A DNA stretch of 39,723 nt from the NCBI GenBank assembly GCA_023150895.1, contig JAKLJY010000075.1:1-39723 (forward strand), written 5' to 3'. Below the pieces are notes generated by a model that saw only the letters and a program-made list of their open reading frames with translations, ran no database searches and was not told the DNA's origin. How positions within the stretch are numbered: position 1 is the stretch's first letter; every line of letters begins with the position of its first letter. The stretch is from Myxococcota bacterium (GTDB lineage Bacteria > Myxococcota_A > Bradymonadia > UBA7976 > UBA1532). Below, piece after piece: positions 1-39,167 of the stretch. A program made the translations under genes and the position numbers.

Positions 1-758
1 CGGAGGCGCGGGCGCTTTTGAGCGAGGACGACACGGGGGGCGGGGGCGACGCGCCGGCGGGGTACGTGACGATTCCGACGGGCGAGTTCACGATGGGCTC
101 GCCGAGCGGGGAAAAGGGCCGCGACGGCGACGAGACACCGCACCGTGTGCGCATCACGCGAGGTTTCTACTTGAAAGCGACGGAGGTGACGCAGGGGGAG
201 TGGGAGTCGGTGATGGGGTCGAACCCGTCAGGATTCACCGACTGCGGGAAGACCTGCCCGGTCGAGAATGTCTCGTGGAACGACGCGGTGTCGTACCTGA
301 ACAAGCTGTCGGACCGAGAGGGCCTGGGGCGTTGCTACGACGCGAGCGGTGCGTTCGTGGGTTTGAGCTGCAAGGGGTACCGGCTGCCGACGGAAGCGGA
401 GTGGGAGTACGCGGCGCGTGCGGGGACGACGGGGGCGCGGCACGGTGACCTGGACGCCGTGGCGTGGTACGACGGCAACTCGGGAAGCACGACGCACCCG
501 GTGGGGAAGAAACGATCGAACGCGTGGGGGCTGTACGACATGTTGGGGAACGTGTCGGAGTGGACGAACGACCGGTATGGAGACTACGCAGATGGCACGG
601 GAACGGACCCCGTCGGTCCGGCCTCGGGCGAGATCCGCGTCCGCCGCGGGGGCAGTTGGGTCAACAACGCGCAGGGCGTGCGCGCCGCCCTCCGCCGCGG
701 GAGCACGCCCGACTACCGGAGCGGCAGCCTCGGTTTCCGCCCCCTCAGGGCTCGTTGA
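1..758 (+). CDS. 5'-truncated CDS encoding the C-terminal FGE-sulfatase (SUMF1/EgtB/PvdO-type) domain of a caspase–FGE fusion paralogue
   Basis: The frame continues from the window start (EARALLSEDDTGGGG…), matching the linker of paralogue 3. FGE-sulfatase hallmarks are present: RVRITRGFYL, TEAEWEYAARAG, GLYDMLGNVSEWTND, RVRRGGSW, GFRPLRAR*. Nucleotides 1–130 are near-identical to 7232–7360. Confidence 0.8.
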   Translation, partial: EARALLSEDDTGGGGDAPAGYVTIPTGEFTMGSPSGEKGRDGDETPHRVRITRGFYLKATEVTQGEWESVMGSNPSGFTDCGKTCPVENVSWNDAVSYLNKLSDREGLGRCYDASGAFVGLSCKGYRLPTEAEWEYAARAGTTGARHGDLDAVAWYDGNSGSTTHPVGKKRSNAWGLYDMLGNVSEWTNDRYGDYADGTGTDPVGPASGEIRVRRGGSWVNNAQGVRAALRRGSTPDYRSGSLGFRPLRAR

Positions 759-1010
759 CCCCTTGATCCTTGCACCCTCGATCCCTTGATCCACGCTCAC
801 CGAGCCGAAAGCGGACGCGGCGCCGGCCCCGGCGCGCTTGCGCGCCGAGAAGGGCACGGCAGAGCGGTCGCCGGCGAGCCCGCCCGCGCCGGTCGTAACG
901 GCGCGCGGGGGGTCGCAGTGGTCGCCGGCGAGGCCGCAGCGAGTGCCCTGCCGCGCGGCAGCCCGGGTGGGGTCCAGGGCAAAGCCCTGGTCGCGCAATC
1001 CTCAACCGTC
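759..1010. repeat. Intergenic structured repeat element, copy A (longest copy), immediately 3' of caspase–FGE paralogue 1
   Basis: Shares 'cccttgatccttgc…gatcccttgatcc…cgagccgaaagcgg…ggtcgccggcgaggccgcagcgagtgccctg(t/c)cgcgcggcagcccgggt(t/g)gggtccagggc..agccctggtc' with 3802–3940 and 8090–8305. It contains two predicted hairpins (gccgc-a-gcga/tcgc-gcggc and ccaggg/ccctgg). ORF-track 'proteins' through it (MRAEKGTAERS…, MPPRSLDP…, MRAEEGPP…) share sequence only because of the repeat. Confidence 0.6.
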
Positions 1011-1116
1011 AGTGAGCCGGACACACGCCCCGCCGCGCGACTTGAACTCCGGCCCGGCCTCTGACCTGATCGTCTCGTCCGGCCGCGCCTCGGCCGCCAT
1101 CCAGAGGGTCCCGTCC

Positions 1117-3801
1117 ATGTTTGCTCCCCGCCTGCTCGTTGCCACGGCCTTCGCACTCCTCGTCGGCGTGACTCTCGCGCCCTCCGCCGTCGCCCAGGAC
1201 GCCCCGAACGCGGCCGCGCGGTGGCCGAGCCTCACCGACGTGCCCCCGAAGGCGCCAGGCGGCGGGCAGGACGACGCGGCGGTCGTCGTGGGCATCGAGA
1301 AGTACGCCTTCTTGACGGGCATCCCCGGGGCGAAGGCCAACGCGCTGGCGTGGGAACGCTGGCTGCGCGACGTGCGACAAGTCCCCGGTGAACGCGTCCA
1401 TGTGCTCACGGACAACGACGGGACGCGGGAGAAGATCCTGACGCACGTGCGCAAGGCCGCGGCGGGGGTCCAGAAGGGTGGCACGCTCTGGATCGTGTTC
1501 ATCGGTCACGGCGCGCCGTCGCGGGAGAAACGCGCGGACGGGCAGGACGACGGGGTGCTGGTCGGGGTGGACGCGCAGCAGGATCCGGACGGTTTCTACG
1601 TGCGCGCGGTGGCGCAGGGCGACGTCGTCGGCGTCGCGCGGGAGACGGCCGCGCGGGGGGCCAACCCCGTGGTGATTCTGGACGCCTGCTTCTCGGGGCA
1701 GGACGCGACGGGGGCGTCGTTGTTGCCCGGCCGGATGGTCGCCCTGCCGGCCTCGCTGGCCCGAGTGGCCGACGTGATGGTCCTCTCCGCGGGCCGGGCG
1801 AAGGAGATGGCCGGTCCGCTGCCGGGGCCCGCCGACCGCCCCCGGCCGGCGTTCAGTTACCTGCTGCTCGGCGGTCTGCGCGGCTGGGCGGACGCCGGTG
1901 CCGCCGGCGCCCCGGGAGACGGTCGGGTGACCCCGGGCGAGGCGCTGTCCTACGTGCGCACCGTCTTCAACAAGCTCGATCCCACCCGGAGCCAGACGCC
2001 CGAGTGTTACCCCGAGAAGCTGTGCACCCGTCCGCTCGCGCGGAGCGCGGGTGAGAAGGCGCCCGACCTCGTGGCGCTCGCCCACCGCATGAGCGGGGGC
2101 GCCGGCAACGCCTACGGCCAGCCGTTTCAGCCGTTTCAGCCCTTCGACGGCGGGCTCGACTACGGGGAGAACATCCAGAACACCGTCGTCGACGACACGG
2201 GCTTCCTGCTCGTGACCTCGGAGCCGAGCGGCGCGACGGTGATGCTGAATGGCAAGGAGGTCGGCAAGACACCGTTCCAGAAGGAGGTGATGGTCGGCCG
2301 GTACCGCATCGTGCTCGAGGGGGTGGCGTTGCACCACGCGCACCAGGAGGAGATCACGCTGACGACGGCGGGGGCGAAGAAGAGGGTCACACTGCGGCCC
2401 GCGTTCGGGCGGTTGGTGGTCGAGACGACGCCGCCGGGCGCGCGGGTGAGCGTCGACGGGGCCGACGTCGGCGCAGGGCCGTACACCGATCCGCGGCGAC
2501 GCTCCGGGCGCTATGAGATCCGCGCGGCGGCGGACCTGTATCTGAGCGCGCGACAGACCGTCGAGGTCACCGACGGCCAGGAGACGCGCGTGTCATTGCG
2601 GCTCGAGCCCAACTTCGGCGCGCTGCGGGTCGAGAGCACGCCCCCCGGCGGCGAGATTCTGCTCGACGGCACGGCGACGGGGCAGGTGACGCCGTACACG
2701 TTCGAGCGCAAGCAAGTGGGCACCTACGCCGTCAGCGTGCGGCGGTCCGGATACGGCGAGCGCGGGGGCAAGGCGAGCGTGCGGGTCGGCGCCACCGAGA
2801 CGCTCGCGCTCACGCTGGAGGCGAAGCTCGGCCTGCTGTCGGTGACGTCCCTCGACGGCGACGGCGCCCCGTGCGAGGGCGCGCTCGCGGTGGACGGCGT
2901 GGCGCAGGGCACGACGCCGACCAAGGTGCAGCTCCCCGAGGGCCGCCACGAGGTGACGGTGAGGTGCGGCGCGGCCGAGGGCCGCGAGACCGTGCAGATC
3001 GGGCACAACGAGAAGGCCCGGGTGGAGGTGCGGATGCCGGCAAGGGCGCGGCCTCGGCCGTCGGAGGATCAGCCCGTGGTGACGTCGGGCGACGCGCCGG
3101 CGGGGTACGTGGCGATTCCGGCGGGGGAGTTCACGATGGGGTCGCCGAACGGGGAAGAGGGCCGCGAGAGCGACGAGAAGCAGCACCGTGTGCGCATCAC
3201 GCGTGGTTTCTACTTGAAAGCGACGGAGGTGACGCAGGGGGAGTGGGAGTCGGTGATGGGGTCGAATCCGTCGCACTTCAAGAGTTGCGGGGAGGATTGC
3301 CCGGTCGAGAACGTCTCGTGGACGGACGCGGTGTCGTACCTGAACAAGCTGTCGGACCGTGAGGGGCTGGGGCGGTGCTACGACGGGAACGACCGCTTCG
3401 TGGGTCTGAGCTGCAAGGGGTATCGGCTGCCGACGGAGGCAGAGTGGGAGTATGCCGCGCGTGCGGGGACGACGGGTGCGCGATACGGGGACCTGGACGC
3501 AGTCGCGTGGTACCGCGACAACTCAGGAAGAACGACGCACCCTGTCGGGCAGCAACGAGCGAGCTCTTGGGGGCTGTACGACATGCTCGGAAACGTGTGG
3601 GAGTGGACGAACGACTGGTATGCGGATTACCCGGGAGGGACGGTGACGGACCCCGTCGGTCCGGCCTCGGGCGAGCGCCGCGTCTTCCGCGGGGGCACTT
3701 GTTACTACGGCGCGCGGTTCGTGCGCGCCGCCAGCCGCCTCAGGTTCACGCCCGACCTCCGGGACAACGTCCTCGGTTTCCGCCCCCTCAGGGCTCGTTG
3801 A
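1117..3801 (+). CDS. Secreted multidomain protein: signal peptide, caspase-like peptidase C14 domain, PEGA repeats, C-terminal FGE-sulfatase domain
   Basis: N-terminus MFAPRLLVATAFALLVGVTLAPSAVAQ is a signal peptide. Caspase His/Cys motifs are LWIVFIGHGAP and VILDACFSG. Repeated PEGA-like units occur (TPPGARVSVDGADVG…, STPPGGEILLDGTATGQVTPYTF…, GALAVDGVAQGTTPTKV). The C-terminus carries FGE motifs (RVRITRGFYLKATEVTQGEWE, LPTEAEWEYAARAG, GLYDMLGNVWEWTND, RVFRGG, GFRPLRAR*). Start was set by frame arithmetic from ORF 838..3801. Confidence 0.8.
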   Translation: MFAPRLLVATAFALLVGVTLAPSAVAQDAPNAAARWPSLTDVPPKAPGGGQDDAAVVVGIEKYAFLTGIPGAKANALAWERWLRDVRQVPGERVHVLTDNDGTREKILTHVRKAAAGVQKGGTLWIVFIGHGAPSREKRADGQDDGVLVGVDAQQDPDGFYVRAVAQGDVVGVARETAARGANPVVILDACFSGQDATGASLLPGRMVALPASLARVADVMVLSAGRAKEMAGPLPGPADRPRPAFSYLLLGGLRGWADAGAAGAPGDGRVTPGEALSYVRTVFNKLDPTRSQTPECYPEKLCTRPLARSAGEKAPDLVALAHRMSGGAGNAYGQPFQPFQPFDGGLDYGENIQNTVVDDTGFLLVTSEPSGATVMLNGKEVGKTPFQKEVMVGRYRIVLEGVALHHAHQEEITLTTAGAKKRVTLRPAFGRLVVETTPPGARVSVDGADVGAGPYTDPRRRSGRYEIRAAADLYLSARQTVEVTDGQETRVSLRLEPNFGALRVESTPPGGEILLDGTATGQVTPYTFERKQVGTYAVSVRRSGYGERGGKASVRVGATETLALTLEAKLGLLSVTSLDGDGAPCEGALAVDGVAQGTTPTKVQLPEGRHEVTVRCGAAEGRETVQIGHNEKARVEVRMPARARPRPSEDQPVVTSGDAPAGYVAIPAGEFTMGSPNGEEGRESDEKQHRVRITRGFYLKATEVTQGEWESVMGSNPSHFKSCGEDCPVENVSWTDAVSYLNKLSDREGLGRCYDGNDRFVGLSCKGYRLPTEAEWEYAARAGTTGARYGDLDAVAWYRDNSGRTTHPVGQQRASSWGLYDMLGNVWEWTNDWYADYPGGTVTDPVGPASGERRVFRGGTCYYGARFVRAASRLRFTPDLRDNVLGFRPLRAR

Positions 3802-3940
3802 TCCCTTGATCCTTGCCCCCTCGATCCCTTGATCCATGCTCATCGAGCCGAAAGCGGTCGCCGGCGAGGCCGCAGCGAGTGCCCTGTCGCGCGGCAGCCC
3901 GGGTTGGGTCCAGGGCGGAGCCCTGGTCGGGCACTCTTCA
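3802..3940. repeat. Intergenic structured repeat element, copy B (internally deleted variant)
   Basis: Same cccttgatcc direct repeats and conserved hairpin core as copies A and C. Relative to copy A it lacks the segment between two 'gcggtcgccggcgag' direct repeats. Confidence 0.6.
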
Positions 3941-3950
3941 CACGACGGGC

Positions 3951-4553
3951 CTAGCCACCGAGACGACGGAGCGCCTTGCCGAGCTCGTCCATGAAGTGGC
4001 CCAGCGAAGGGCTGCCCTTCGACGCACGGAACGGATCGAGGAAGGGCATCAGATCGGCCGCGACGTCCATCGGATCGTTGAGCACCGGGATGCCCGCCGC
4101 CTCCAGCGCGTCGCGCAACCAGACCTTGTAGCCGCGGCGCCCGGGCTTGGCCGGTGGCGGCCCGGGGTCGACGCCGAGCGCCGACTTCAACGCGACGCGG
4201 TCGGCGGCGCACCAGGCCTCGACGTGCGGGTCCGGGCACGCGATGACCGTCTCCCGGAAGAGATCGGGCTGCAGATGCGCCGCGACACTGCGGCGCTGGG
4301 CGCCCCAGCCCTCACCGTTGGCGTCGATCATCACCACGAGAAGGTCCGCCGTCGAGGGCGCGACACCGCGGGCCAGGGACCGTTGCCACAAGTCGAGCTC
4401 GCTCAACGCGCGGCCGTGCCCGCCCCGGGCCGATCGGGCCGTCACGGTCGGGAGAGGCAGTTTCCGTTCGTCGGCCAGCCTGCGGATGAGGGCCCGCGCG
4501 AACGCCTCGTGGCCGGCGTCCTCGCAGAAGAGATCGATCTCCAGGTCAGCCAT
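3951..4553 (-). CDS. DUF4276-like protein (predicted divergent TOPRIM/OLD-nuclease-like partner of the upstream ATPase)
   Basis: N-terminus MADLEIDLFCEDAGHEAF… fits the short-strand plus acidic/Glu start typical of DUF4276. An LLVVMIDANGEGW acidic motif is present. It is about 200 aa, the usual size for the family. Its start codon overlaps the ATPase stop by 8 bp (ATGGCTGA). Family assignment is from remembered motif patterns only, not a search. Confidence 0.5.
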   Translation of the reverse strand: MADLEIDLFCEDAGHEAFARALIRRLADERKLPLPTVTARSARGGHGRALSELDLWQRSLARGVAPSTADLLVVMIDANGEGWGAQRRSVAAHLQPDLFRETVIACPDPHVEAWCAADRVALKSALGVDPGPPPAKPGRRGYKVWLRDALEAAGIPVLNDPMDVAADLMPFLDPFRASKGSPSLGHFMDELGKALRRLGG

Positions 4554-5796
4554 CCATCCAACCCCGCGTGACGGCCGCCTGAACCACGGCCGCGTCCTCC
4601 GCGGCGACGAGCGCCTCGCGCAGCGCCTGGTCCGCAAAGAGGGGGCCGGTCGGGTCGAACCCCTTCAATCGCGTGCCATGCGCGCCGACGCTGCATTGCA
4701 GCAAGCGCACGTCCCGGGCGTCGAGGTCGCCCTCCCGGACGAGCCCGATGATCTCACCGACGACGATGGGTGAGTGGGTCGTCACGATGACCTGCCGGCG
4801 CCGAGACGCCGTGGCGAGCAGGCGGCTGACGACCTCGATGCGGCGCGGGTGCACGCCGTTCTCGGGCTCCTCGAAGGCGAGCAGGCCGGTCTCGAGCGGA
4901 CTTGCGGCCATTGCGCACAGCGCCAGCACCCGCAGCGTGCCTTCCGAGATGACCCGACCGGAGAGCCAGAGGCCATCTTGTTTGATCTTCAGGTCGATCT
5001 CGCCACGTGCGGCCACGAGCTCGGTGTCGATGGCCTCGATGCTGGGCACGACCGCCCGGACACCTCGCACGACCGCGTCGAACGCCGGCTTCCACTCCGG
5101 CGTCGACCTGAGGCGGTGCAGAAACGGAACCAGGTGTTCGCCGCGCGCGCCGATGTCGTCGACCTCGCGCGGCGGTTGAGCGCCGCGCATACGCTCGCCC
5201 GGGTCCAGATACACGACTCGCCAGGCACCGATCTCGTGCCGGAGCGCGTCGAAGTCCGGGAACCGTTCGGCGCCCGCGTACTGCCGGTTCGAGGCGAAGC
5301 TGTGGCCGAGTCCCACGGGTTCGACGAAGGGGTGGCTTTGGCCTCCCTTGCGCCGGACGCGGAAACTCGACTTGCCCTCCGCGTCCACGCGCTCGAGGGC
5401 AGGCATCCCCTTGGGCGTCGACGCCTTCGTGAGGCGGCCGAGCCACTCGTCCGTCAGAAACATCTGCCCGGTCTCGGTGCGGGCGCCGACGGCCACGCGA
5501 TAGCGCAGGTCGCCCCCCTGCGCGGGCGACAGGTCGGCCGAGAACTCGATCGGGGCCGGGTTGCCTTGGCCTTCGGGGAACGGACGCGAGAAGGCCTCCA
5601 TCGGGTAGCCGCGCAGGCCGGCGTCGAAGGCCTCCGCCAGCGTGCGCTCGCCCACCAGGCGGGAGAGCAGGACGAGCGACTCCAGCAGGTTGCTCTTCCC
5701 CGCCGCGTTCGGGCCGAACACGACGACGAGCCGACCGAACTCGGCCTCGACGTGTCGCAGCGACTTGAATCCTCGAACGGTCAGTCTGTGAAGCAT
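4546..5796 (-). CDS. AAA_21/AAA_15-type ABC ATPase (OLD/AriA/AbiLi-like predicted ATP-binding protein)
   Basis: N-terminus MLHRLTVRGFKSLRHVEAEFGRLVVVFGPNAAGKSNLLESL is a Walker A motif in the SMC/RecF/OLD-like ABC configuration. The C-terminus has QVIVTTHSPIVV (Walker B / D-loop / H-loop region). Start was chosen at the Met preceding the conserved N-terminal strand (residue 113 of ORF 4546..6132). Confidence 0.7.
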   Translation of the reverse strand: MLHRLTVRGFKSLRHVEAEFGRLVVVFGPNAAGKSNLLESLVLLSRLVGERTLAEAFDAGLRGYPMEAFSRPFPEGQGNPAPIEFSADLSPAQGGDLRYRVAVGARTETGQMFLTDEWLGRLTKASTPKGMPALERVDAEGKSSFRVRRKGGQSHPFVEPVGLGHSFASNRQYAGAERFPDFDALRHEIGAWRVVYLDPGERMRGAQPPREVDDIGARGEHLVPFLHRLRSTPEWKPAFDAVVRGVRAVVPSIEAIDTELVAARGEIDLKIKQDGLWLSGRVISEGTLRVLALCAMAASPLETGLLAFEEPENGVHPRRIEVVSRLLATASRRRQVIVTTHSPIVVGEIIGLVREGDLDARDVRLLQCSVGAHGTRLKGFDPTGPLFADQALREALVAAEDAAVVQAAVTRGWMDG

Positions 5797-5989
5797 GGCG
5801 TTCGATACCACGAAGCGCCGCGCGCGTCGAAGGCCGGGGTCCCGCCGCGGTGCCCGACACTCCCGACGCACGCCGTCGGATGCGTGTGCGCCGTGCGTCA
5901 TGCGCGCAGGTCGTGCCCCCGCACGCCCCTTGAATTCCACACCGGCCCGTGCGTCGATCCGGTCCTGATTCAACCGCGCGGGGGCCGCG

Positions 5990-8089
5990 ATGTTTCTCAC
6001 AAATCGAACACTGGTTGCCGCCGTCACGTTGTCGGCGCTCACGACGCTGGCCCCGGGCCTCTCGGACGCGGCGACGCCGGCGCGGTGGCCGACGCTGGCG
6101 GAGCCGCCGGCGGGCGCGGCGGGCGGGGGCAAGGCGGACGCGGCGGTGATTGTGGGGGTGGAGGACTACGCCTTTCTGCCGGACGTGCCGGGGGCGGTGG
6201 CGAACGCGAACGCGTGGGAGACGTGGCTGGAGCGGACGCGGAAGGTGCCGGGGGAGCGCATCCGGGTGCTGCGCAACGAGCAGGGGACGAACTCGAAGAT
6301 CAAGGCGGCGCTGGAGGGCGCGGCGAAGGACGTGCAGCGCGGCGGGACGCTGTGGGTGGTCTTCATCGGGCACGGCGCGCCGATGGCGCAGACGAACGAC
6401 GGCGTGCTGGTGGGGGTGGACGCTCAGCAGGACCCGCTGGGGTTCTACAGCCGCGGCCTGCGGCGCGGCGAGGTGCTCGAGGTCGCGGGCCGCGCGGCGG
6501 CGCGGGGGGCGAACCCGGTGGTGGTGCTGGACGCATGCTTCAGCGGGCGTTCGGCGGGGGGCGCGTCGCTGTTGCCGGGGTCGCAGGTGGCGCTGCCGGC
6601 GTCGTTCGCGACGGCGGGGTCGGTGACGGTGCTGAGCGCCGGGGCGGCGCACGAGATCGCGGGCCCGCTGCCCGGGCCGGTGGACGTGCAGCGGCCGGCG
6701 TTCAGCTACCTGATGCTGGGGGCGCTGCTGGGCTGGGCCGACGGGGCGCTGGACGAGCGTGCCGACGGCGAGGTGACCGTGCCCGAGGCGCTGACCTACG
6801 TGCGGCGCGCGCTGCGAAAGCTGGACGCGACCCGCGAGCAAACGCCGGAGTGCGCGCCTGCGGAGCGCTGCGGGGCGTCGCTGGGCAAGAGCGCGGGCGA
6901 GCGGGGGCCGGACCTCGGGGCGCTGGCGGGGGTGGTGAACCCGCCGGTGCGACCCGTCGACCCGGGGCCGTCCGGCGGCGGGTTCGACGCGGCGATTCGT
7001 GCGGCGCTGGAGAAGCAGGCTGCGGCGGACGCAGCGCGTGCGGAGGCGGAGCGGGTAGCGGCGGAGGCGGCGAGGCTGGAGCGCGAGGCGCGTGCGGCGC
7101 ACCTCGCGCGGGTGGACGCGGACTTCACGAAGGTGAAGACGGCGGCGAAGGCGGGGCCGTTGGCGGCGAAGGCGGCGGTGGAGGCGTTCATCGGGGCGTA
7201 CGCGAAGCACCCTTTGGGGAACCCGCGGGAGGCGGAGGCGCGGGCGCTTTTGAGCGAGGACGACACGGGGGGCGGGGGCGACGCGCCGGCGGGGTACGTG
7301 ACGATTCCGGCGGGCGAATTCATGATGGGGTCGCCGGAAAGTGAAGAGGGCTATTGCTGGGGCGAGAAACGCCACCGTGTGCGCATCACGCGCGGTTTCT
7401 ACTTGAAAGCGACGGAGGTGACGCAAGGGGAGTGGGAATCGGTGATGGGGTCGAACCCGTCGCGCTTCAAGAACTGTGGGAAGACCTGCCCGGTAGAGAG
7501 TGTCTCGTGGATCGACGCGGTGTCGTACCTGAACAAGTTGTCGGACCATGAGGATCTGCCGCGGTGCTACCACGCGAACGGGGCGTTCGTGGGGCTGAGC
7601 TGCAAGGGGTACCGGCTGCCGACGGAGGCGGAGTGGGAGTACGCGGCGCGTGCGGGGACGACGGGGGCGGTGTACGCGGGGACGTGGGACATCGTGGGGG
7701 AGAACAACGCGCCAGCGCTGGGACCCATCGCCTGGTACGGGGGGAACAGCGGGGTCTCCTACGAAGGGGGATCTTGGTGCGGCGATCGGCCGGAGAAGCA
7801 GGAGGCATCGAGCACGTGCGGCACGCACCCGGTGGGGCAGAAGCGCGCGAACGCGTGGGGGTTGTTCGACATGCTCGGAAACGTGGAAGAGTGGACGAAC
7901 GACTGGAGTGATCAATACCCGGGAGGCAAGGAGACGGACCCCGTCGGTCCGGCCTCGGGCGGGTTCCGAAGCACCCGCGGGGGCGGTTGGAGCAACATTG
8001 CGCGCCACGTGCGCGCCGCCGTCCGCGGCTGGTACGCGCCCGGCAACCGGTTCGACTACCTCGGTTTCCGCCCCCTCAGGGCTCGTTGA
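5990..8089 (+). CDS. Secreted caspase-like (peptidase C14)–coiled-coil–FGE-sulfatase fusion protein (paralogue 3)
   Basis: Signal peptide MFLTNRTLVAAVTLSALTTLAPGLSDA. Caspase motifs LWVVFIGHGAP and VVLDACFSG. Ala/Glu/Arg-rich coiled-coil linker (AAADAARAEAERVAAEAARLEREARAAH). FGE domain with an about 50-aa insertion (VYAGTWDIVGENNAP…CGTHPVG) and C-terminal GFRPLRAR*. Confidence 0.8.
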   Translation: MFLTNRTLVAAVTLSALTTLAPGLSDAATPARWPTLAEPPAGAAGGGKADAAVIVGVEDYAFLPDVPGAVANANAWETWLERTRKVPGERIRVLRNEQGTNSKIKAALEGAAKDVQRGGTLWVVFIGHGAPMAQTNDGVLVGVDAQQDPLGFYSRGLRRGEVLEVAGRAAARGANPVVVLDACFSGRSAGGASLLPGSQVALPASFATAGSVTVLSAGAAHEIAGPLPGPVDVQRPAFSYLMLGALLGWADGALDERADGEVTVPEALTYVRRALRKLDATREQTPECAPAERCGASLGKSAGERGPDLGALAGVVNPPVRPVDPGPSGGGFDAAIRAALEKQAAADAARAEAERVAAEAARLEREARAAHLARVDADFTKVKTAAKAGPLAAKAAVEAFIGAYAKHPLGNPREAEARALLSEDDTGGGGDAPAGYVTIPAGEFMMGSPESEEGYCWGEKRHRVRITRGFYLKATEVTQGEWESVMGSNPSRFKNCGKTCPVESVSWIDAVSYLNKLSDHEDLPRCYHANGAFVGLSCKGYRLPTEAEWEYAARAGTTGAVYAGTWDIVGENNAPALGPIAWYGGNSGVSYEGGSWCGDRPEKQEASSTCGTHPVGQKRANAWGLFDMLGNVEEWTNDWSDQYPGGKETDPVGPASGGFRSTRGGGWSNIARHVRAAVRGWYAPGNRFDYLGFRPLRAR

Positions 8090-8305
8090 CCCCTTGATCC
8101 TTGCCCCCGTGATCCCTTGATCGACGACGACCGAGCCGACAGCGGACGCGGCGCCGGCCCCGGCGCGCTTGCGCGCCGAAGAGGGCCCGCCCGCGCCGGT
8201 CGTAACGGCGCGCGGGGGGTCGCAGCGGTCGCCGGCGAGGCCGCAGCGAGTGCCCTGTCGCGCGGCAGCCCGGGTTGGGTCCAGGGCGGAGCCCTGGTCA
8301 AGCGA
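8090..8305. repeat. Intergenic structured repeat element, copy C
   Basis: Near-identical to copy A except for a roughly 24-bp deletion. It sits directly after the stop of paralogue 3. Confidence 0.6.
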
Positions 8306-8379
8306 TGGTCGACCTGCCGCTCTGGCAGCCCGGCCGACCGCACCTTGCGACACTCGGCCCGTCGTGGCACCGTCTGGGC

Positions 8380-25649: not shown

Positions 25650-27532
25650 ACGCTCTCCTGCGGCGCGCGATGGGTGTGTTCGTCGTCGTGGGGATGCAGG
25701 CCTGCACCGAGACTTCGAGCGACACATCGACAAGTGCAGACGCGGCGCGGCCCGACGACGCTCGCTCCGTTCCGGAAGACACCATCGACCGCGGCCCGCC
25801 GGCGTCCGGAACGGACGGGTCGAACGACGCGCGCGTGGCGTTTGTCGATGCTCTCGACGCACCCGGCGCCGACGCTCGCGTGGTGCCCGACGCCGGTCCG
25901 CCCGTCGAGCCGGTCGATCCCACCGACCCCACCGACGCCGTCTTCGATTGGGACCATGTGATGACCGTCGAGGTGACGCTGCCCCCCGCGGACTGGGCGG
26001 CGCTGCGGCAACAGGGCCGCACGGATCTCGACACCCGTGGGGCGGACTGCATGGACGCGCCCTTTCCGTCGCCCTACACATGGTTCGAGGGCGACGCGAC
26101 CCTCGACGGGCGACCGTATGCCCGCGTCGGGGTGCGCAAGAAGGGCTTCTTCGGCTCGCTGAGCCGGTCGCGGCCGTCGCTCGTGCTCGATCTCGACCGC
26201 CACGTCGACGGGCAGGCGCACGAGACGCTGACCCGCATCGCCCTGAACAACGGCAAGCAGGATCCGAGTCGGCTGCGGACGTGCCTCTCGTACAGCATCC
26301 TCGCCGACGCGGGCGTGCCGGCGCCCCGGTGCCATTTCGCCCACGTCACGGTGAACGGCGAAGATCTGGGCCTGTACGCGCACGTCGAGAGCATCCGCAA
26401 ACCGTTCCTGCGCCGGCACTTCAGCGACGACGAGGGGCATCTGTACGAGGGGGCGCTGAGTGATTTCCGGCCCGGGTGGTCGGGCACCATCGAGCAGAAG
26501 ACCGACGAGGACGTGCCCCACCGGGCGCCGCTCGACGCCGTCACCGCGGCCGCCGCGGCCCCCGACGACACGCTGCTCGACGCGCTCGGCGCGGTGCTCG
26601 ATCTGCCGGCGTTCTATCGGTTCTGGGCGGCCGAGGTGATGATCGCGCACTGGGACGGGTACGCGGGCAATACGAACAACTTCTGGCTCTACGAGGACCC
26701 CGCGCAGGGGGGCCGCCTGGTCTTTCTGCCCTGGGGGCCGGACGGGGCGCTGCAGCCGCCCCGTGTGTTCTTCGAGGGGGCGATTGCGCCGGCGTCCGTC
26801 CTGGCGACGGGCATCCTCGCGCGCCGTCTGTACCTGCACCCCGAGGGTCGACGAGCGTATCTGACGACGCTGGCCCGCATGGTGGTCGATCACTGGTCGA
26901 CGGACGCGCTGCTCGCGCGGCTGGATCGCCTCGCCGCCCTCGTCGGGCCCCGTATGCCGCCCCAGCAACGCGCCGATCACACCCGCGCCGTCGCCGAGCT
27001 GCGGACGTGGGTCGCCGGGCAGCGCGGGCGACTCGAGGCCGAGCTCCTCCGGGGCGACGTGCCCTGGCCCTACCCGCTGCGGCCGTCGCTCTGCACGGTG
27101 CCCGCCGGTGAGCTGCACGGGGCGAGTCGGACGACCTGGGCCTCGTGGCCCACCGACGATGCATTTCGCTCGGGGTCGGGGCGTCTGGAGGGCACCTATC
27201 GCGACGTCCCGCTGGCCGTCCGGGCCGTGGGCGGCGCCGCAGGGCTCGACGAGAACGGGCAGGCCATCGCCCTCGTGCCCCTCTCGATGGCCGACGGTGC
27301 GCTCTGGTTCGTGTACCTCGCCTTCGACCGTGAACAGATCACGCCGGGCGAGCTCGACGCCGCGCAGTTGCCGGCCTGCTCGCTCAACGTCTTCGACGTC
27401 GAGACCGGCGCGGCGACCTACCTGGCGGACTGTCGTGACGGGCGACTGCGCATGACCGACGCCGCGCTCGTGCCGGGTGCCCCGTTTGCGTTCGAGTTCG
27501 ACGTCGGCCTCTGGGTGGGCCTCGGGCGTTGA
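25646..27532 (+). CDS. CotH-family (atypical kinase-like, spore-coat-protein-H-like) lipoprotein
   Basis: Lipobox VVVGMQAC. CotH signature blocks are present: NNGKQDPSRLRTCLSYSILADAGVP, VTVNGEDLGLYAHVESIRKPFLRRHF, HLYEG, AHWDGYAGNTNNFWLYEDP. The start overlaps the sthA stop (GTGA). The last ~30 codons are duplicated at 30338–30453. Confidence 0.65.
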   Translation: MNALLRRAMGVFVVVGMQACTETSSDTSTSADAARPDDARSVPEDTIDRGPPASGTDGSNDARVAFVDALDAPGADARVVPDAGPPVEPVDPTDPTDAVFDWDHVMTVEVTLPPADWAALRQQGRTDLDTRGADCMDAPFPSPYTWFEGDATLDGRPYARVGVRKKGFFGSLSRSRPSLVLDLDRHVDGQAHETLTRIALNNGKQDPSRLRTCLSYSILADAGVPAPRCHFAHVTVNGEDLGLYAHVESIRKPFLRRHFSDDEGHLYEGALSDFRPGWSGTIEQKTDEDVPHRAPLDAVTAAAAAPDDTLLDALGAVLDLPAFYRFWAAEVMIAHWDGYAGNTNNFWLYEDPAQGGRLVFLPWGPDGALQPPRVFFEGAIAPASVLATGILARRLYLHPEGRRAYLTTLARMVVDHWSTDALLARLDRLAALVGPRMPPQQRADHTRAVAELRTWVAGQRGRLEAELLRGDVPWPYPLRPSLCTVPAGELHGASRTTWASWPTDDAFRSGSGRLEGTYRDVPLAVRAVGGAAGLDENGQAIALVPLSMADGALWFVYLAFDREQITPGELDAAQLPACSLNVFDVETGAATYLADCRDGRLRMTDAALVPGAPFAFEFDVGLWVGLGR

Positions 27533-30337: not shown

Positions 30338-30453
30338 CCGGGTTCGACGGCCAACTGCGCGTGACCGACGCCGCGCTCGTGCCGGGGGCCCCGTTCGCGT
30401 TCGAGTTCGACGTCGGCCTCTGGGTGGGCCTCGACACCGCGGCGGGGGAGTGA
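30338..30453 (+). repeat. Direct-repeat copy of the CotH gene 3' end (remnant fragment)
   Basis: caactgcgcgtgaccgacgccgcgctcgtgccggg(g/t)gccccgtt(c/t)gcgttcgagttcgacgtcggcctctgggtgggcctcg is about 95% identical to 27436–27525. It translates to …LRVTDAALVPGAPFAFEFDVGLWVGL… followed by a different tail. Confidence 0.6.
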
Positions 30454-37148: not shown

Positions 37149-39167
37149 CTACGGGATCGCGTCCTCGATGTTCGAATAGAGACCGTAGATGCGCCCGCAG
37201 ACGGGGTGCTGGATGAACGCGCGGGACCGGTAGCGGTAACGCCCGCCGTTGACCCGCGGCGCGTCGAGGTGGCTGCGCGCCTCGGCCGGCAAATCACCGC
37301 TGATGTTGTCCCAGGCCGCGGCGTCGCCGGCATCCTCGCCGGGGTCGAGCCGGGCCACGCGGAAGCCGGAGACCGCCGGCCCCTGATACTCCCAGGTCAC
37401 CCGCACGGGCTGTGGCTCGGGGGTGTTTTCGCCCTGTCGCGCGGCGACCAGATTGCGGGGGGCCGGGGGGCCTGCGGGGCACTCGTTGCCGCCCCCGGCG
37501 CAGTCCCCGCCGTCGAGCCCGCAGGCCGCGACGTTGCAGTCTTCGTCGCACTCGCCATCGCCGATCCAGTCGGCGGGGCAGCCGGGCGCACACTCCGCGC
37601 CGGGCTCGCCGCCCGCGCAGTCCCCCCCGTCGAAGGCGCAGGCCGCGACGTTGCACGCGTCGTCGCAGACGCTGTCACCGGGCCAGTCCGCGGGGCAGCC
37701 GGGGGCGCACTCCTCGCCCGGGTTGACCTCGGCGCAGTCCCCCGCGTCGAAGCCGCAGGGGCCCACGTTGCAGACATCGTCGCAGGTGCCGTCGCCGAGC
37801 CACTCCACGGCGCAATCCGGCGCGCAGACGGCCGGGCCGCCCTCACAATCGCCCGCGTCGAACCCACAGGCGGCCACCCGGCAGGCGACGTCGCAGGTGC
37901 CGTCGCCAATCCACTCGGCGGGGCAGCCCGGGGCACAGTCGGGGCCCGGCACCACGCCCGCGCAGTCGCCGTCGTCGAAACCGCACGCCTCGACGTCGCA
38001 GGTCGCATCGCAGGTGCCATCGCCGCGCCACTCCGGGAAGCAGTTGGGCGCACACTGTTCGACACCCGGATCCGGGCCGGGTCCGGCCTCGCAGTCCCCC
38101 CCGTCGAAGCCGCAGGCCTCAACGTTGCAGTCGACGTCGCAGGTGCCGTCGCCGCGCCACTCGGCGTAACAGCCGGGGGCGCAGAGCGCGGGATCCGGCC
38201 CCGGTCCGGGACCCCCCGCGCAGTCGCCGTCGTCGAAACCGCAGGCCTCGACGTCACAGTCGGCGTCGCAGGTGCCGTCCCCGCGCCACTCGGCGAGGCA
38301 GCCCGCGGCGCAGAGACCGGGATCGGGCCCGGGGCCCCCGGCGCAGTCGCCGTCGTCGTGATTGCAGGCCGCCACGTCGCAGTCGACGTCGCAGGTGCCG
38401 TCGCCGCGCCATTCGGCGAGGCAACCGGGCGAGCAGACCTCGTCGGGGTCCACCCCGGGGCCGGCGTCGGGGGCGTCGGCGCAGTCGCCGTCGTCGTGAT
38501 CGCAAGCAGCGGTGTTGCAATCGACGTCGCAAGTGCCATCGCCCCGGAACGCCGCCAGACAGCCCGGCGCGCAGAGTTGGCCGGGGTCGAAGCCGGGGCC
38601 GGCGTCGGGCACGTCGGCGCAGTCACCGTCGTCGTGATTGCAGGCCTCGACGTTGCAGTCGACGTCGCAGGTGCCGTCGCCGCGGAAGGCCGCCAGACAG
38701 CCCGGCGCGCACGCCTGATCGGGATCGAGGCCCGGGCCGGCGTCGGGCACGTCGGCGCAGTCGCCGTCGTCGTGATTGCAGGCCGCGACGTTGCAGTCGA
38801 CGTCGCAGGTGCCGTCGCCGCGGAAGGCCGCCAGGCACCCCCGCGCACAGGCGTCGGGGTCGGGCCCGGGCGCGCCACCCGTGCCGCCCGATGCGTTGCC
38901 GCCCGATGCGTTGCCGCCCGTCGCCCCGCCGGTGCCGCCGGTTGCAACTCCGCCGGTGCCGCCGGTTGCGACTCCGCCGGTGCCGCCCGTGAGACCCCCG
39001 CCGGTGCCGCCCGCGACCCCGCCGCTGCCGGTGCCGGCGTCGTCTCCCGTCGAGGCCGCGTCGGTATCGGTGTTTTCGCCGCAGCCGGCGGCCGTCAGGG
39101 TCAGGAGCAACGCCAGGCGGGCCGCCCGACCGATCGTCGTGCCCAGCGGGCTTCGTTCGAGCGCCAT
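37149..39167 (-). CDS. Lipoprotein with about 14 tandem Lin-12/Notch (LNR) repeats, an N-terminal Gly/Thr-rich linker and a C-terminal FN3-like domain
   Basis: Start MALERSPLGTTIGRAARLALLLTLTAAGC. The linker is GTGGGLTGGTGGVATGG…. Repeats such as CAPGCLAAFRGDGTCDVDCNVAACNHDDGDCA match the LNR consensus C-x3-C-x5-GDG-x-CD-x2-CN-x3-C-x2-D(G/D)GDC. The C-terminus PAPRNLVAARQGE…VRVTWEY is FN3-like. Confidence 0.75.
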   Translation of the reverse strand: MALERSPLGTTIGRAARLALLLTLTAAGCGENTDTDAASTGDDAGTGSGGVAGGTGGGLTGGTGGVATGGTGGVATGGTGGATGGNASGGNASGGTGGAPGPDPDACARGCLAAFRGDGTCDVDCNVAACNHDDGDCADVPDAGPGLDPDQACAPGCLAAFRGDGTCDVDCNVEACNHDDGDCADVPDAGPGFDPGQLCAPGCLAAFRGDGTCDVDCNTAACDHDDGDCADAPDAGPGVDPDEVCSPGCLAEWRGDGTCDVDCDVAACNHDDGDCAGGPGPDPGLCAAGCLAEWRGDGTCDADCDVEACGFDDGDCAGGPGPGPDPALCAPGCYAEWRGDGTCDVDCNVEACGFDGGDCEAGPGPDPGVEQCAPNCFPEWRGDGTCDATCDVEACGFDDGDCAGVVPGPDCAPGCPAEWIGDGTCDVACRVAACGFDAGDCEGGPAVCAPDCAVEWLGDGTCDDVCNVGPCGFDAGDCAEVNPGEECAPGCPADWPGDSVCDDACNVAACAFDGGDCAGGEPGAECAPGCPADWIGDGECDEDCNVAACGLDGGDCAGGGNECPAGPPAPRNLVAARQGENTPEPQPVRVTWEYQGPAVSGFRVARLDPGEDAGDAAAWDNISGDLPAEARSHLDAPRVNGGRYRYRSRAFIQHPVCGRIYGLYSNIEDAIP
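37440..38870. repeat. Tandem roughly 96–102-bp coding repeats (LNR modules) within the 37149..39167 gene
   Basis: Reiterated 'cagtc(g/c)ccgtcgtcgtgattgcaggcc(g/t)cgacgt(t/c)gcagtcgacgtcgcaggtgccgtcgccgcg…' units are visible by eye across about 1.4 kb. Confidence 0.7.

Follow-up and report, generated by a model that had tools for sequence, protein, structure and literature searches.

Target-side boundary repeats of a probable diversity-generating retroelement behind three caspase–FGE paralogues in a Myxococcota contig

Diversity-generating retroelements (DGRs) reverse-transcribe the RNA of a template repeat (TR), making errors at adenines, and the resulting cDNA then replaces the variable region (VR) of a target gene. 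In BPP-1, it was demonstrated that the initiation of mutagenic homing sequence (IMH) and the stem-loop are needed for efficient homing and sufficient for targeting (Guo et al., PMC3240598). Phage DGR hairpins are found 4–34 bp from the VR, with 7–10-bp stems and 4-nt GRNA loops, and displacement of the BPP-1 hairpin lowers activity (PMC3240598), while a GC-rich inverted repeat downstream of the IMH is present in 34% of DGRs only (Wu et al., PMC5758913). The present analysis concerns positions 1 to 39,723 of contig JAKLJY010000075.1 from a Myxococcota bacterium (assembly GCA_023150895.1; 70% GC), a stretch of 39.7 kb hereafter called the window, in which an element of ~140–250 nt occurs three times (copies A, B and C), each time at the stop codon of a caspase–FGE gene. 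The best explanation, to which a probability of roughly three in four is given, is that each of the three repeats forms the 3′ boundary, on the target side, of a DGR VR in one of these paralogues. A known mechanism accounts for the repeats, and DGR targets of this type are already documented; two aspects are unusual, namely the absence of the DGR core at the site that carries it in a sister genome and the long spacer ahead of the hairpin.

The elements start at the stop codons 756-758, 3799-3801 and 8087-8089. An earlier note on this DNA had proposed three copies starting at the stop codon, forming a conserved cis element linked to the FGE paralogues and distinct from a canonical terminator, and both points were confirmed, coordinates included, with counts above chance. 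The 24-nt core GGCAGCCCGGGTNGGGTCCAGGGC (≤3 mismatches) was seen three times in the 39.7-kb window versus 0.01 expected, and GATCCCTTGATC (≤2 mismatches) six times versus 1.8, all six inside the three elements; no fourth copy of the element was found across the 39.7 kb. In the flank alignment copy A is the longest, copy B being shorter by 107 nt and copy C by 24 nt. Both hairpins described in the earlier note are predicted as well, the 9-bp stem with a 1-nt bulge as GCCGC-A-GCGA...UCGC-GCGGC and the ccaggg/ccctgg one as CCAGGG(C)/(G)CCCTGG. Its claim that the deletions are bounded by direct repeats stood in part: in the sister genome, a 54-nt deletion lies exactly between two GGTCGCCGGCGAG repeats, whereas the deletions of copies B and C merely touch or remove one repeat. 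What had been overlooked is that the last 26 nt of each open reading frame (ORF) are invariant and are preceded by a codon-wise variable stretch. On these grounds, the ORF ends are identified as DGR variable regions, an assignment that is close to certain.

All three genes end in an FGE-sulfatase domain, and PF03781 extends to the last residues of each of the three ORFs. The first target gene, whose 3′ part (18..758, + strand) encodes an FGE-sulfatase / C-type-lectin domain (PF03781, E 2.5e-46), runs off the window start. According to Pfam, the second (1117..3801, +; 894 aa) is composed of a caspase (Peptidase_C14), PEGA repeats and FGE-sulfatase, and the third (5990..8089, +; 699 aa) of caspase and FGE-sulfatase. 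A protein search with the third gene retrieved an 88%-identical orthologue (P0002) on a 55-kb JGI contig, termed L001 or the sister contig, which also carries an orthologue of the second gene (P0003) and whose coding DNA is 86–94% identical to that of the window. On this contig, the gene 3 orthologue lies directly upstream of HRDC, bAvd and RVT_1 reverse transcriptase (RT) genes, which are followed by the Uma2 gene also found behind copy C in the window.

The decisive comparison is with the TR of the sister contig, a 157-nt repeat of the gene ends located downstream of the RT on the opposite strand and rich in AAC codons (...GGAACAACAACGCGCAGAAC...AACCGCAACAGGAAC...GACAACCGGAACAACAACCTCGG...). 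The two VRs of L001 itself differ from this TR by 32–34 mismatches, 24–26 of them at TR adenines. The three window VRs, compared with the same TR since the window itself has none, show 30–40 mismatches, 22–25 of them at TR adenines. In VR1 (598..754, +; 82% over 157 nt in blastn), 22 of the 30 mismatches fall at TR adenines, compared with 25 of 36 in VR2 (3642..3797, +; 79%) and 25 of 40 in VR3 (7935..8085, +; 77%). The invariant terminus CTCGGTTTCCGCCCCCTCAGGGCTCG is the same in all three (729-754 on the + strand in VR1, 3772-3797 in VR2 and 8060-8085 in VR3). The non-adenine mismatches are mostly outside the TR core or lineage-fixed. The differences from the L001 TR that are common to all three window VRs comprise two non-adenine positions (GTGCGC, CCGCCCCC) and one adenine position (GGTTTCC), and the window-specific VR bases are GTGCGCGCC, GGTTTCC and CCGCCCCC; the shared differences, which would be expected if the template of the window VRs was a TR of the window lineage itself, imply such an origin.

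The homology between TR and VR extends to ...CCTCAGGGCTCG and breaks off 4 nt short of the last base of the stop codon, and for this reason the whole element is target-side. The shared terminus reads ...CTCGGATTCCGTCCCCTCAG(C/G)GCTCG, after which TTGA, the ORF end, follows in the VRs and GCCAGGCC... in the TR. The VR and TR of L001 diverge completely after ...GCTCG, and the same is seen in a second Myxococcota DGR (L322), which is arranged as target-HRDC-Avd-RT-TR with an inverted second target. The IMH of the VR (CAGGGCTCG) and its TR counterpart IMH* (CAGCGCTCG) present a single mismatch in the last 26 nt, so that discrimination between target and donor must reside downstream. An IMH at the VR end is paired with a non-identical IMH* and followed by target-specific sequence, and the periodic YTGA repeats are found on the VR side alone.

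These repeats, designated module 1, correspond to the cccttgatcc repeats and make up a YTGA array with a period of ~8 nt, overlapping the stop codon. The periodic CCYTYGA repeats, absent from the TR flank, occupy 755..792 in copy A, 3798..3835 in copy B and 8086..8122 in copy C, all on the + strand. Even for each copy alone, the lag-7/8 autocorrelation exceeded that of shuffles (0.59–0.69 versus 0.32–0.34±0.06, z 4.3–5.3), with 0.66 in copy A (shuffles 0.34±0.06), 0.69 in copy B (z 5.3) and 0.59 in copy C (z 4.3). Among FGE-type targets, periodic repeats were observed in 15 of 15 VR-type ends examined, from 11 lineages (L001, L004, L006, L318, L320-322, L155, L221), with an autocorrelation of 0.537 over the 11 lineages versus 0.279±0.019 in shuffles (z 13.6). 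Caspase/FGE VR-type ends carry three or four CCYTYGA units ~8 nt apart, the first overlapping the stop codon, as in CCCCTGA, CACTTGAA, CACTTGAT and CMCTTGAC of L322 or GCCTTGA, TCCTCGAA, CCCTTGAA and CCCTTGAT of L321; variants of the pattern are present in L318, L004, L006 and L320 and AT-rich versions in L155 and L221. FGE genes without a VR-type end (L005) have no periodic repeats.

A similar architecture was verified in phages. From 80 DGR loci fetched by RT profile, 66 TR/VR pairs were located by the adenine rule, of which 47 were non-redundant. In their VR flanks, a sequence such as CTGTAAATCTGAAATCTGATTACTGAAAATCTGA precedes a GC hairpin whose loop is GATA or GAAA; the TR flanks are quite unlike this (..CCAGAAG..hairpin..CAAAGGA). 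The lag-7/8 autocorrelation reached 0.38 in the 47 VR flanks versus 0.267±0.009 in shuffles (z 12.5; 0 of 1000 shuffles reached the observed value), compared with 0.27 in the matching TR flanks (z 0.3 against the same shuffle level, 0.267±0.009). The VR of BPP-1 ends in GGGGCGCGCGGCG TCTGTGAC CACCTGAT TCTTGAGT AG, followed by the hairpin CGGGGCC-GAAA-GGCCCCG, and its TR in ...GGCG TCTGTGCC CATCACCT TCTTGCAT GG. The BPP-1 IMH, as delimited by experiment, is thus made of three units (TCTGTGAC, CACCTGAT and TCTTGAGT), and every TGA is gone in IMH*. The VR-side periodicity, taken together with the makeup and function of the BPP-1 IMH, is the reason why module 1 is read as IMH-equivalent; judging from the comparative data, this equivalence is probable.

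The regular TGA triplets could also be explained as a three-frame stop module, in which a TGA every ~8 nt would close all frames after an error-prone rewritten region. The window copies have TGA at +0, +8 and +31 (frames 0, 2 and 1), BPP-1 closes the three frames within 26 nt, and L155 and L221 have TAA, TAG and TGA at the same places, all of which fit such a role. However, L004 and L318 retain the repeat but not the stops (CCTTGG), and the core of the phage DGRs is ATCTG, with A as the next base in about half of them (TCTGA 22, TCTGG 12, TCTGT 12). The idea was largely rejected on these repeats and 5-mer counts, and it is very improbable.

A broader proposal can be put forward, though only tentatively and with odds clearly below even. 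In this proposal, the YTGA/CTTGA array starting from the end of TR homology would be a general and undescribed form of the DGR IMH, of which the 21-bp IMH of BPP-1 would represent three units, destroyed in IMH*. The array would serve as a phased binding register through which RT-Avd/HRDC or a host factor carries out homing, and the core motif of each clade (CCTTGA in Myxococcota, ATCTG in many phage DGRs) would define which targets a given DGR is able to write. If true, orphan arrays such as those of the window could be assigned to their RT by motif. A literature search of incomplete coverage found no description of IMH-flank periodicity, and the 8-nt periodicity of the target-only flank, from BPP-1 to Myxococcota, may be new to the literature.

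A genome scan with TTGNNCCCNNGATCCCTTGATC was set aside as uninformative because the pattern is too near a simple repeat: the matches listed were generic (TTGATCCC)n arrays drawn from a wide range of phyla, with neither an FGE gene nor an RT close to any of them. Among these matches (L007-L126), perfect or near-perfect (TTGATCCC)n 8-nt arrays were located in intergenic and 5′ untranslated region (UTR) DNA, often at contig ends and sometimes paired with the inverse (GGGATCAA)n. The hosts included single Phycisphaerae metagenome-assembled genomes (MAGs), with several contigs each, Saprospiraceae, Nitrospira, Bacteroidales, Streptomyces and a Methanosarcina MAG.

At the other end of the element lies module 3, the terminal hairpin, found on the + strand as CCAGGGC-AAA-GCCCTGG in copy A (974..990; DNA fold -7.9 to -8.4 kcal/mol, z -2.35) and as CCAGGGC-GGA-GCCCTGG in copies B (3910..3926) and C (8281..8297). 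The form GGGTCCAGGGC-RNA-GCCCTGGTCG is kept in the three window copies, in two copies of L001 and, with one C-to-T change, in L006. In L004, an added G:C base pair (CCAGGGGC/GCCCCTGG) maintains the stem, and in L320 the corresponding position, ahead of HRDC, is taken by another GC-rich stem (CCCGGGGG/CCCCCGGG). The hairpin GGGTCCAGGGC-RNA-GCCCTGGTCG also occurs in L155 and L221, despite FGE domains of only ~30% identity, directly after the VR repeats and directly ahead of avd, with a T-run behind it. Across nine target flanks the stem is invariant and the loop variable (AAA, GGA, GCA, GAA). As DNA, the window hairpin folds at -7.9 kcal/mol (z -2.3) and that of BPP-1 at -13.3 kcal/mol (z -3.7). 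DNA mini-hairpins with C-GNA-G triloops have exceptional stability, a property that would suit a cruciform role.

Two of the lineages that carry such target-side signals deserve mention in their own right. In L155, a stop codon truncates the avd gene behind the target and hairpin (3429-3647, -) to 72 aa, no RT-like long ORF was seen in the next 4.5 kb (judged without Pfam), and tblastn of the L001 RT against the whole locus gave no match; this locus represents a further decayed DGR still holding target-side signals. In a 9.29 Mb genome (OW818691.1), an identical caspase-FGE target occurs twice (L318 and L319), ~277 kb apart, with at least 330 nt of identical 3′ flank. No RT was present within 10 kb of either copy, one of which adjoins an IS91-family transposase, and the terminal hairpin is degraded in both.

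Several findings weigh against the interpretation of the elements as DGR boundary regions. The RT, Avd, HRDC and TR of L001 had no match in the window besides the VRs in tblastn and blastn searches, and no RT ~85–90% identical to that of L001 was found among public proteins; therefore, DGR activity in this genome is considered putative. As regards module 1, (TTGATCCC)n arrays are widespread without DGRs, indicating that the motif alone is not DGR-specific. The element as a whole is 84.5–87.8% identical between orthologues, no better than coding DNA (86–94%). The remaining points concern the hairpin, which lies 112–219 nt from the VR end with a 7-bp stem and a 3-nt RNA loop. The first 60 nt past the repeats fold no better than shuffles, the terminal stem never varies and hence offers zero covariation, and other GC-rich inverted repeats are found instead in L322, L321 and L318, which argues against a canonical role. 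Moreover, the 20-nt hairpin is the consensus unit of an abundant family resembling repetitive extragenic palindromic (REP) sequences and REPINs, with no DGR or FGE gene nearby, and scans of metagenomes and IMG/VR for the hairpin recovered mostly this unrelated family, the DGR-linked matches being L155 and L221 only; like the repeats, the hairpin motif by itself is thus not specific to DGRs. Given this sharing and the unusual distance and fold, the hairpin is best described as a generic, terminator-like stem-loop used by this DGR lineage, and the chance that it is a functional DGR stem-loop is put slightly below even. In the REP-like family itself (L127-L246 in metagenomes, L247-L317 in IMG/VR), the unit reads ..GGGGTCTGGGGCC-n-GGCCCCAGC GGGTCCAGGGC-RRA-GCCCTGGCCTTCC, copies are often inverted pairs 90–170 bp apart, as in REPINs, and no Rfam family covers it.

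Between modules 1 and 3, module 2 comprises 70–180 nt of a mosaic of GC-rich inverted repeats, conserved no further than the sister genome, whose indels are bounded in part by GGTCGCCGGCGAG repeats (two in copy A, at 866 and 920, and one each in copies B and C). In copy A (793..973, +), this lineage-specific filler includes the arms 817-837/840-860 and 874-891/899-916 and the bulged hairpin at 932-959. The 107-nt deletion of copy B (3836..3909, +) and the 24-nt deletion of copy C relative to copy A (8123..8280, +) both leave the bulged hairpin in place, at 3868-3895 and 8239-8266. Paralogous elements within the window share ~91% identity, above the 72–85% of the coding DNA next to them, a pattern suggestive of concerted evolution more than of strong constraint.

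Such a pattern is what would be expected if the element were a passive flank, that is, 3′ non-coding DNA copied with the paralogues, kept similar by gene conversion and devoid of its own function. The presence of no more than three copies in the window, the orthologue divergence as fast as that of coding DNA, the paralogue similarity with indels shared within the genome and the zero covariation all agree with this explanation, which fits the middle module well. However, both end modules reappear 3′ of VR-type ends where the proteins of the lineages share only 30–57% identity, as well as in phage DGRs, so that neutral shared descent cannot explain them, and the repeats are absent from TR flanks and from the non-VR FGE genes of L005. 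A passive flank is thus unlikely as an account of the whole element.

It was also considered whether the element acts at the RNA level as a 3′ end module, either a terminator or a 3′-UTR stabiliser, with the C-rich, G-poor repeats serving as a Rho loading site and the GC hairpin as a terminator or exonuclease block. T-runs are found 2–9 nt 3′ of the hairpin in relatives (T8 in L155, TTTTCTTT in L221, TTTT at +9 in L001), intergenic 3′ ends are the typical setting of the REP-like family that includes the hairpin, one C-to-T substitution allows G-U pairing solely on the + strand (bulged hairpin of copies B and C, terminal hairpin of L006), and terminators follow some DGR targets (Wu et al., PMC5758913). 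Nevertheless, as the earlier note had observed, no U-tract directly follows the hairpin in the window, where the sequences are TCGCGCAATCC, TCGGGCACTCT and TCAAGCGATGG, and an intrinsic terminator was rejected. The structured 3′-UTR RNA that the same note had offered as a candidate found no support. The window gave 0 Rfam matches at the gathering threshold, copy A one chance-level match at a permissive E-value (E 4.6) and ten related loci none, and a tRNA/tmRNA scan was negative. The folding energies of copies A, B and C were no better than those of dinucleotide shuffles (z -1.23, +0.32 and -1.09). The suggested covariation check, carried out with RNAalifold on nine related target flanks, predicted the terminal hairpin alone, with seven invariant pairs and no informative covariation. 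Additionally, copy A is situated within what is probably an operon, ahead of gene 2, and the specificity of the repeats for VR and not TR flanks is not predicted by a generic terminator role. An RNA-level 3′ end function, although compatible with a DGR role, is accordingly rated marginally less probable still than the passive flank. Readings of the repeats as CsrA-type or anti-Shine-Dalgarno sites, weighed on the sequence alone, were set aside.

Two further candidates from the earlier note fared differently. A dispersed REP or miniature inverted-repeat transposable element (MITE) was rejected, as the three copies in 39.7 kb all stand directly after VRs, with no doublets and no terminal inverted repeats. 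The recombination hotspot was close in spirit as far as the link to recombination is concerned, because mutagenic retrohoming is a site-directed replacement at the DNA level; its supposed part in driving duplication of the paralogues or cassette insertion is no more than putative, although the cargo of the slot 3′ of copy B does differ between two genomes.

The DGR boundary reading remains to be set against the organization of the sister locus. A complete DGR cassette, with RT, Avd/HRDC and TR near the target, is absent from the window and present at the sister locus. In the synteny blast, unbroken apart from this cassette, L001 12280 corresponds to window 8299 and L001 14597 to window 8380, so that a 2.3-kb cassette (HRDC, Avd, RT and TR) faces an empty site of ~80 bp between copy C and the Uma2 gene (8298..8379). 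For the window targets this leaves two possibilities: an RT encoded elsewhere in the genome acts on them in trans, or they are recent relics. Under the DGR explanation, the retroelement would diversify the C-terminal FGE-type C-type-lectin folds of the three caspase-FGE paralogues, and the CCCTTGATCC-type direct repeats, that is, the ~8-nt YTGA array, would mark the three genes as recipients. The terminal hairpin CCAGGGC-RNA-GCCCTGG would most likely be the counterpart of the DGR stem-loop and possibly also the transcript end. The filler of module 2 would grow and shrink by slippage between short direct repeats and be homogenised among paralogues by gene conversion.

Other features distinguish the two loci. 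The TR of the sister contig (14385-14541) is opposite in strand to HRDC-Avd-RT and converges on the RT 3′ end, with a 12-bp GC hairpin between them, an unusual DGR layout. The sister gene 1 (L001 2573-2566 vs window 689-1033) is without the 3′ half of the VR, the IMH-like repeats and the entire element A (~345 bp), a target decayed in the sister genome and retained in the window. The slot between target genes 2 and 3, 3′ of copy B, holds different cargo in each: in the window (3951-5796, -), an AAA_21 ATPase and a 200-aa partner that match the candidate defence system HEC-01 (A: E 8e-55; B: E 1.6e-4), and in L001 (5878-9896), an ISL3 transposase, a 442-aa protein and a BrnT/BrnA toxin-antitoxin pair. 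Elsewhere in the window, a 672-aa protein (37149-39167, -) contains ten LNR (Notch) domain repeats (PF00066, E 2e-69), which underlie 117–138-nt tandem DNA repeats at the right end, up to 39718. An 88-nt direct repeat, 94% identical, occurs at 27437-27524 and 30346-30433, 2.9 kb apart, and probably reflects paralogous coding segments.

With the DGR reading, three genes that would pass for "SUMF1/EgtB/PvdO family enzymes" are relabelled as hypervariable caspase-linked sensors, and a puzzling repeat becomes an address label steering mutagenic homing. A three-target array without a core at the exact sister site offers a natural case for either the survival of targets after loss of the retroelement or service in trans. 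If confirmed, the periodic target-only flank would allow remote DGR targets to be located, and synthetic ones to be designed, by a simple rule at the sequence level.

Compared with described systems, the element shares some traits with REP/REPIN arrays, since its terminal hairpin GGGTCCAGGGC-RRA-GCCCTGG is identical in sequence to the consensus of a multi-hairpin family abundant in metagenomes and IMG/VR contigs, and its middle module is a GC-rich hairpin mosaic with presence/absence variation. Unlike such arrays, it shows no inverted doublets and is not dispersed, its three window copies all following VRs, and the DGR-linked hairpin copies end in ...GGTCG, unlike the REP-like family (...GGCCTTCC). 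The resemblance to the BPP-1 target end (mtd VR1-(GC)14-IMH-stem-loop) extends to a VR at the 3′ end of an ORF encoding a C-type-lectin fold, TR homology that ends at a near-identical IMH/IMH* pair, and target-only ~8-nt YTGA motifs over the stop codon followed by a GC-rich hairpin. However, the BPP-1 hairpin (8-bp stem, GAAA loop) comes directly after the stop codon, whereas that of the window (7 bp, RNA triloop) is 112–219 nt downstream, behind extra GC-rich repeats, and BPP-1 has one target in cis with avd-TR-brt, whereas the window has three targets and no core genes in the contig.

The HRDC DGRs of "Architecture C", such as that of Treponema denticola TvpA (Wu et al. 2018, PMC5758913), likewise have targets with the FGE-sulfatase/CLec1 fold and multiple targets, and the sister locus carries the same combination of an HRDC accessory gene and Avd. 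The present targets differ from them in their N-terminal effector, which is a caspase (Peptidase_C14) with or without PEGA repeats, and the sister locus in its TR on the strand opposite the RT. Finally, in the main text of the study of conflict-system antigen-sensor DGRs of multicellular bacteria, Myxococcota, HRDC and hairpins have 0 occurrences each (Doré et al. 2024, PMC10907252). The DGRs described there are nevertheless similar to the present locus in joining caspase-like protease effectors to C-terminal C-type-lectin (CLec) VRs, in having transposons and defence genes interleaved with the targets, and in the duplication and decay of DGR components (PMC10907252).

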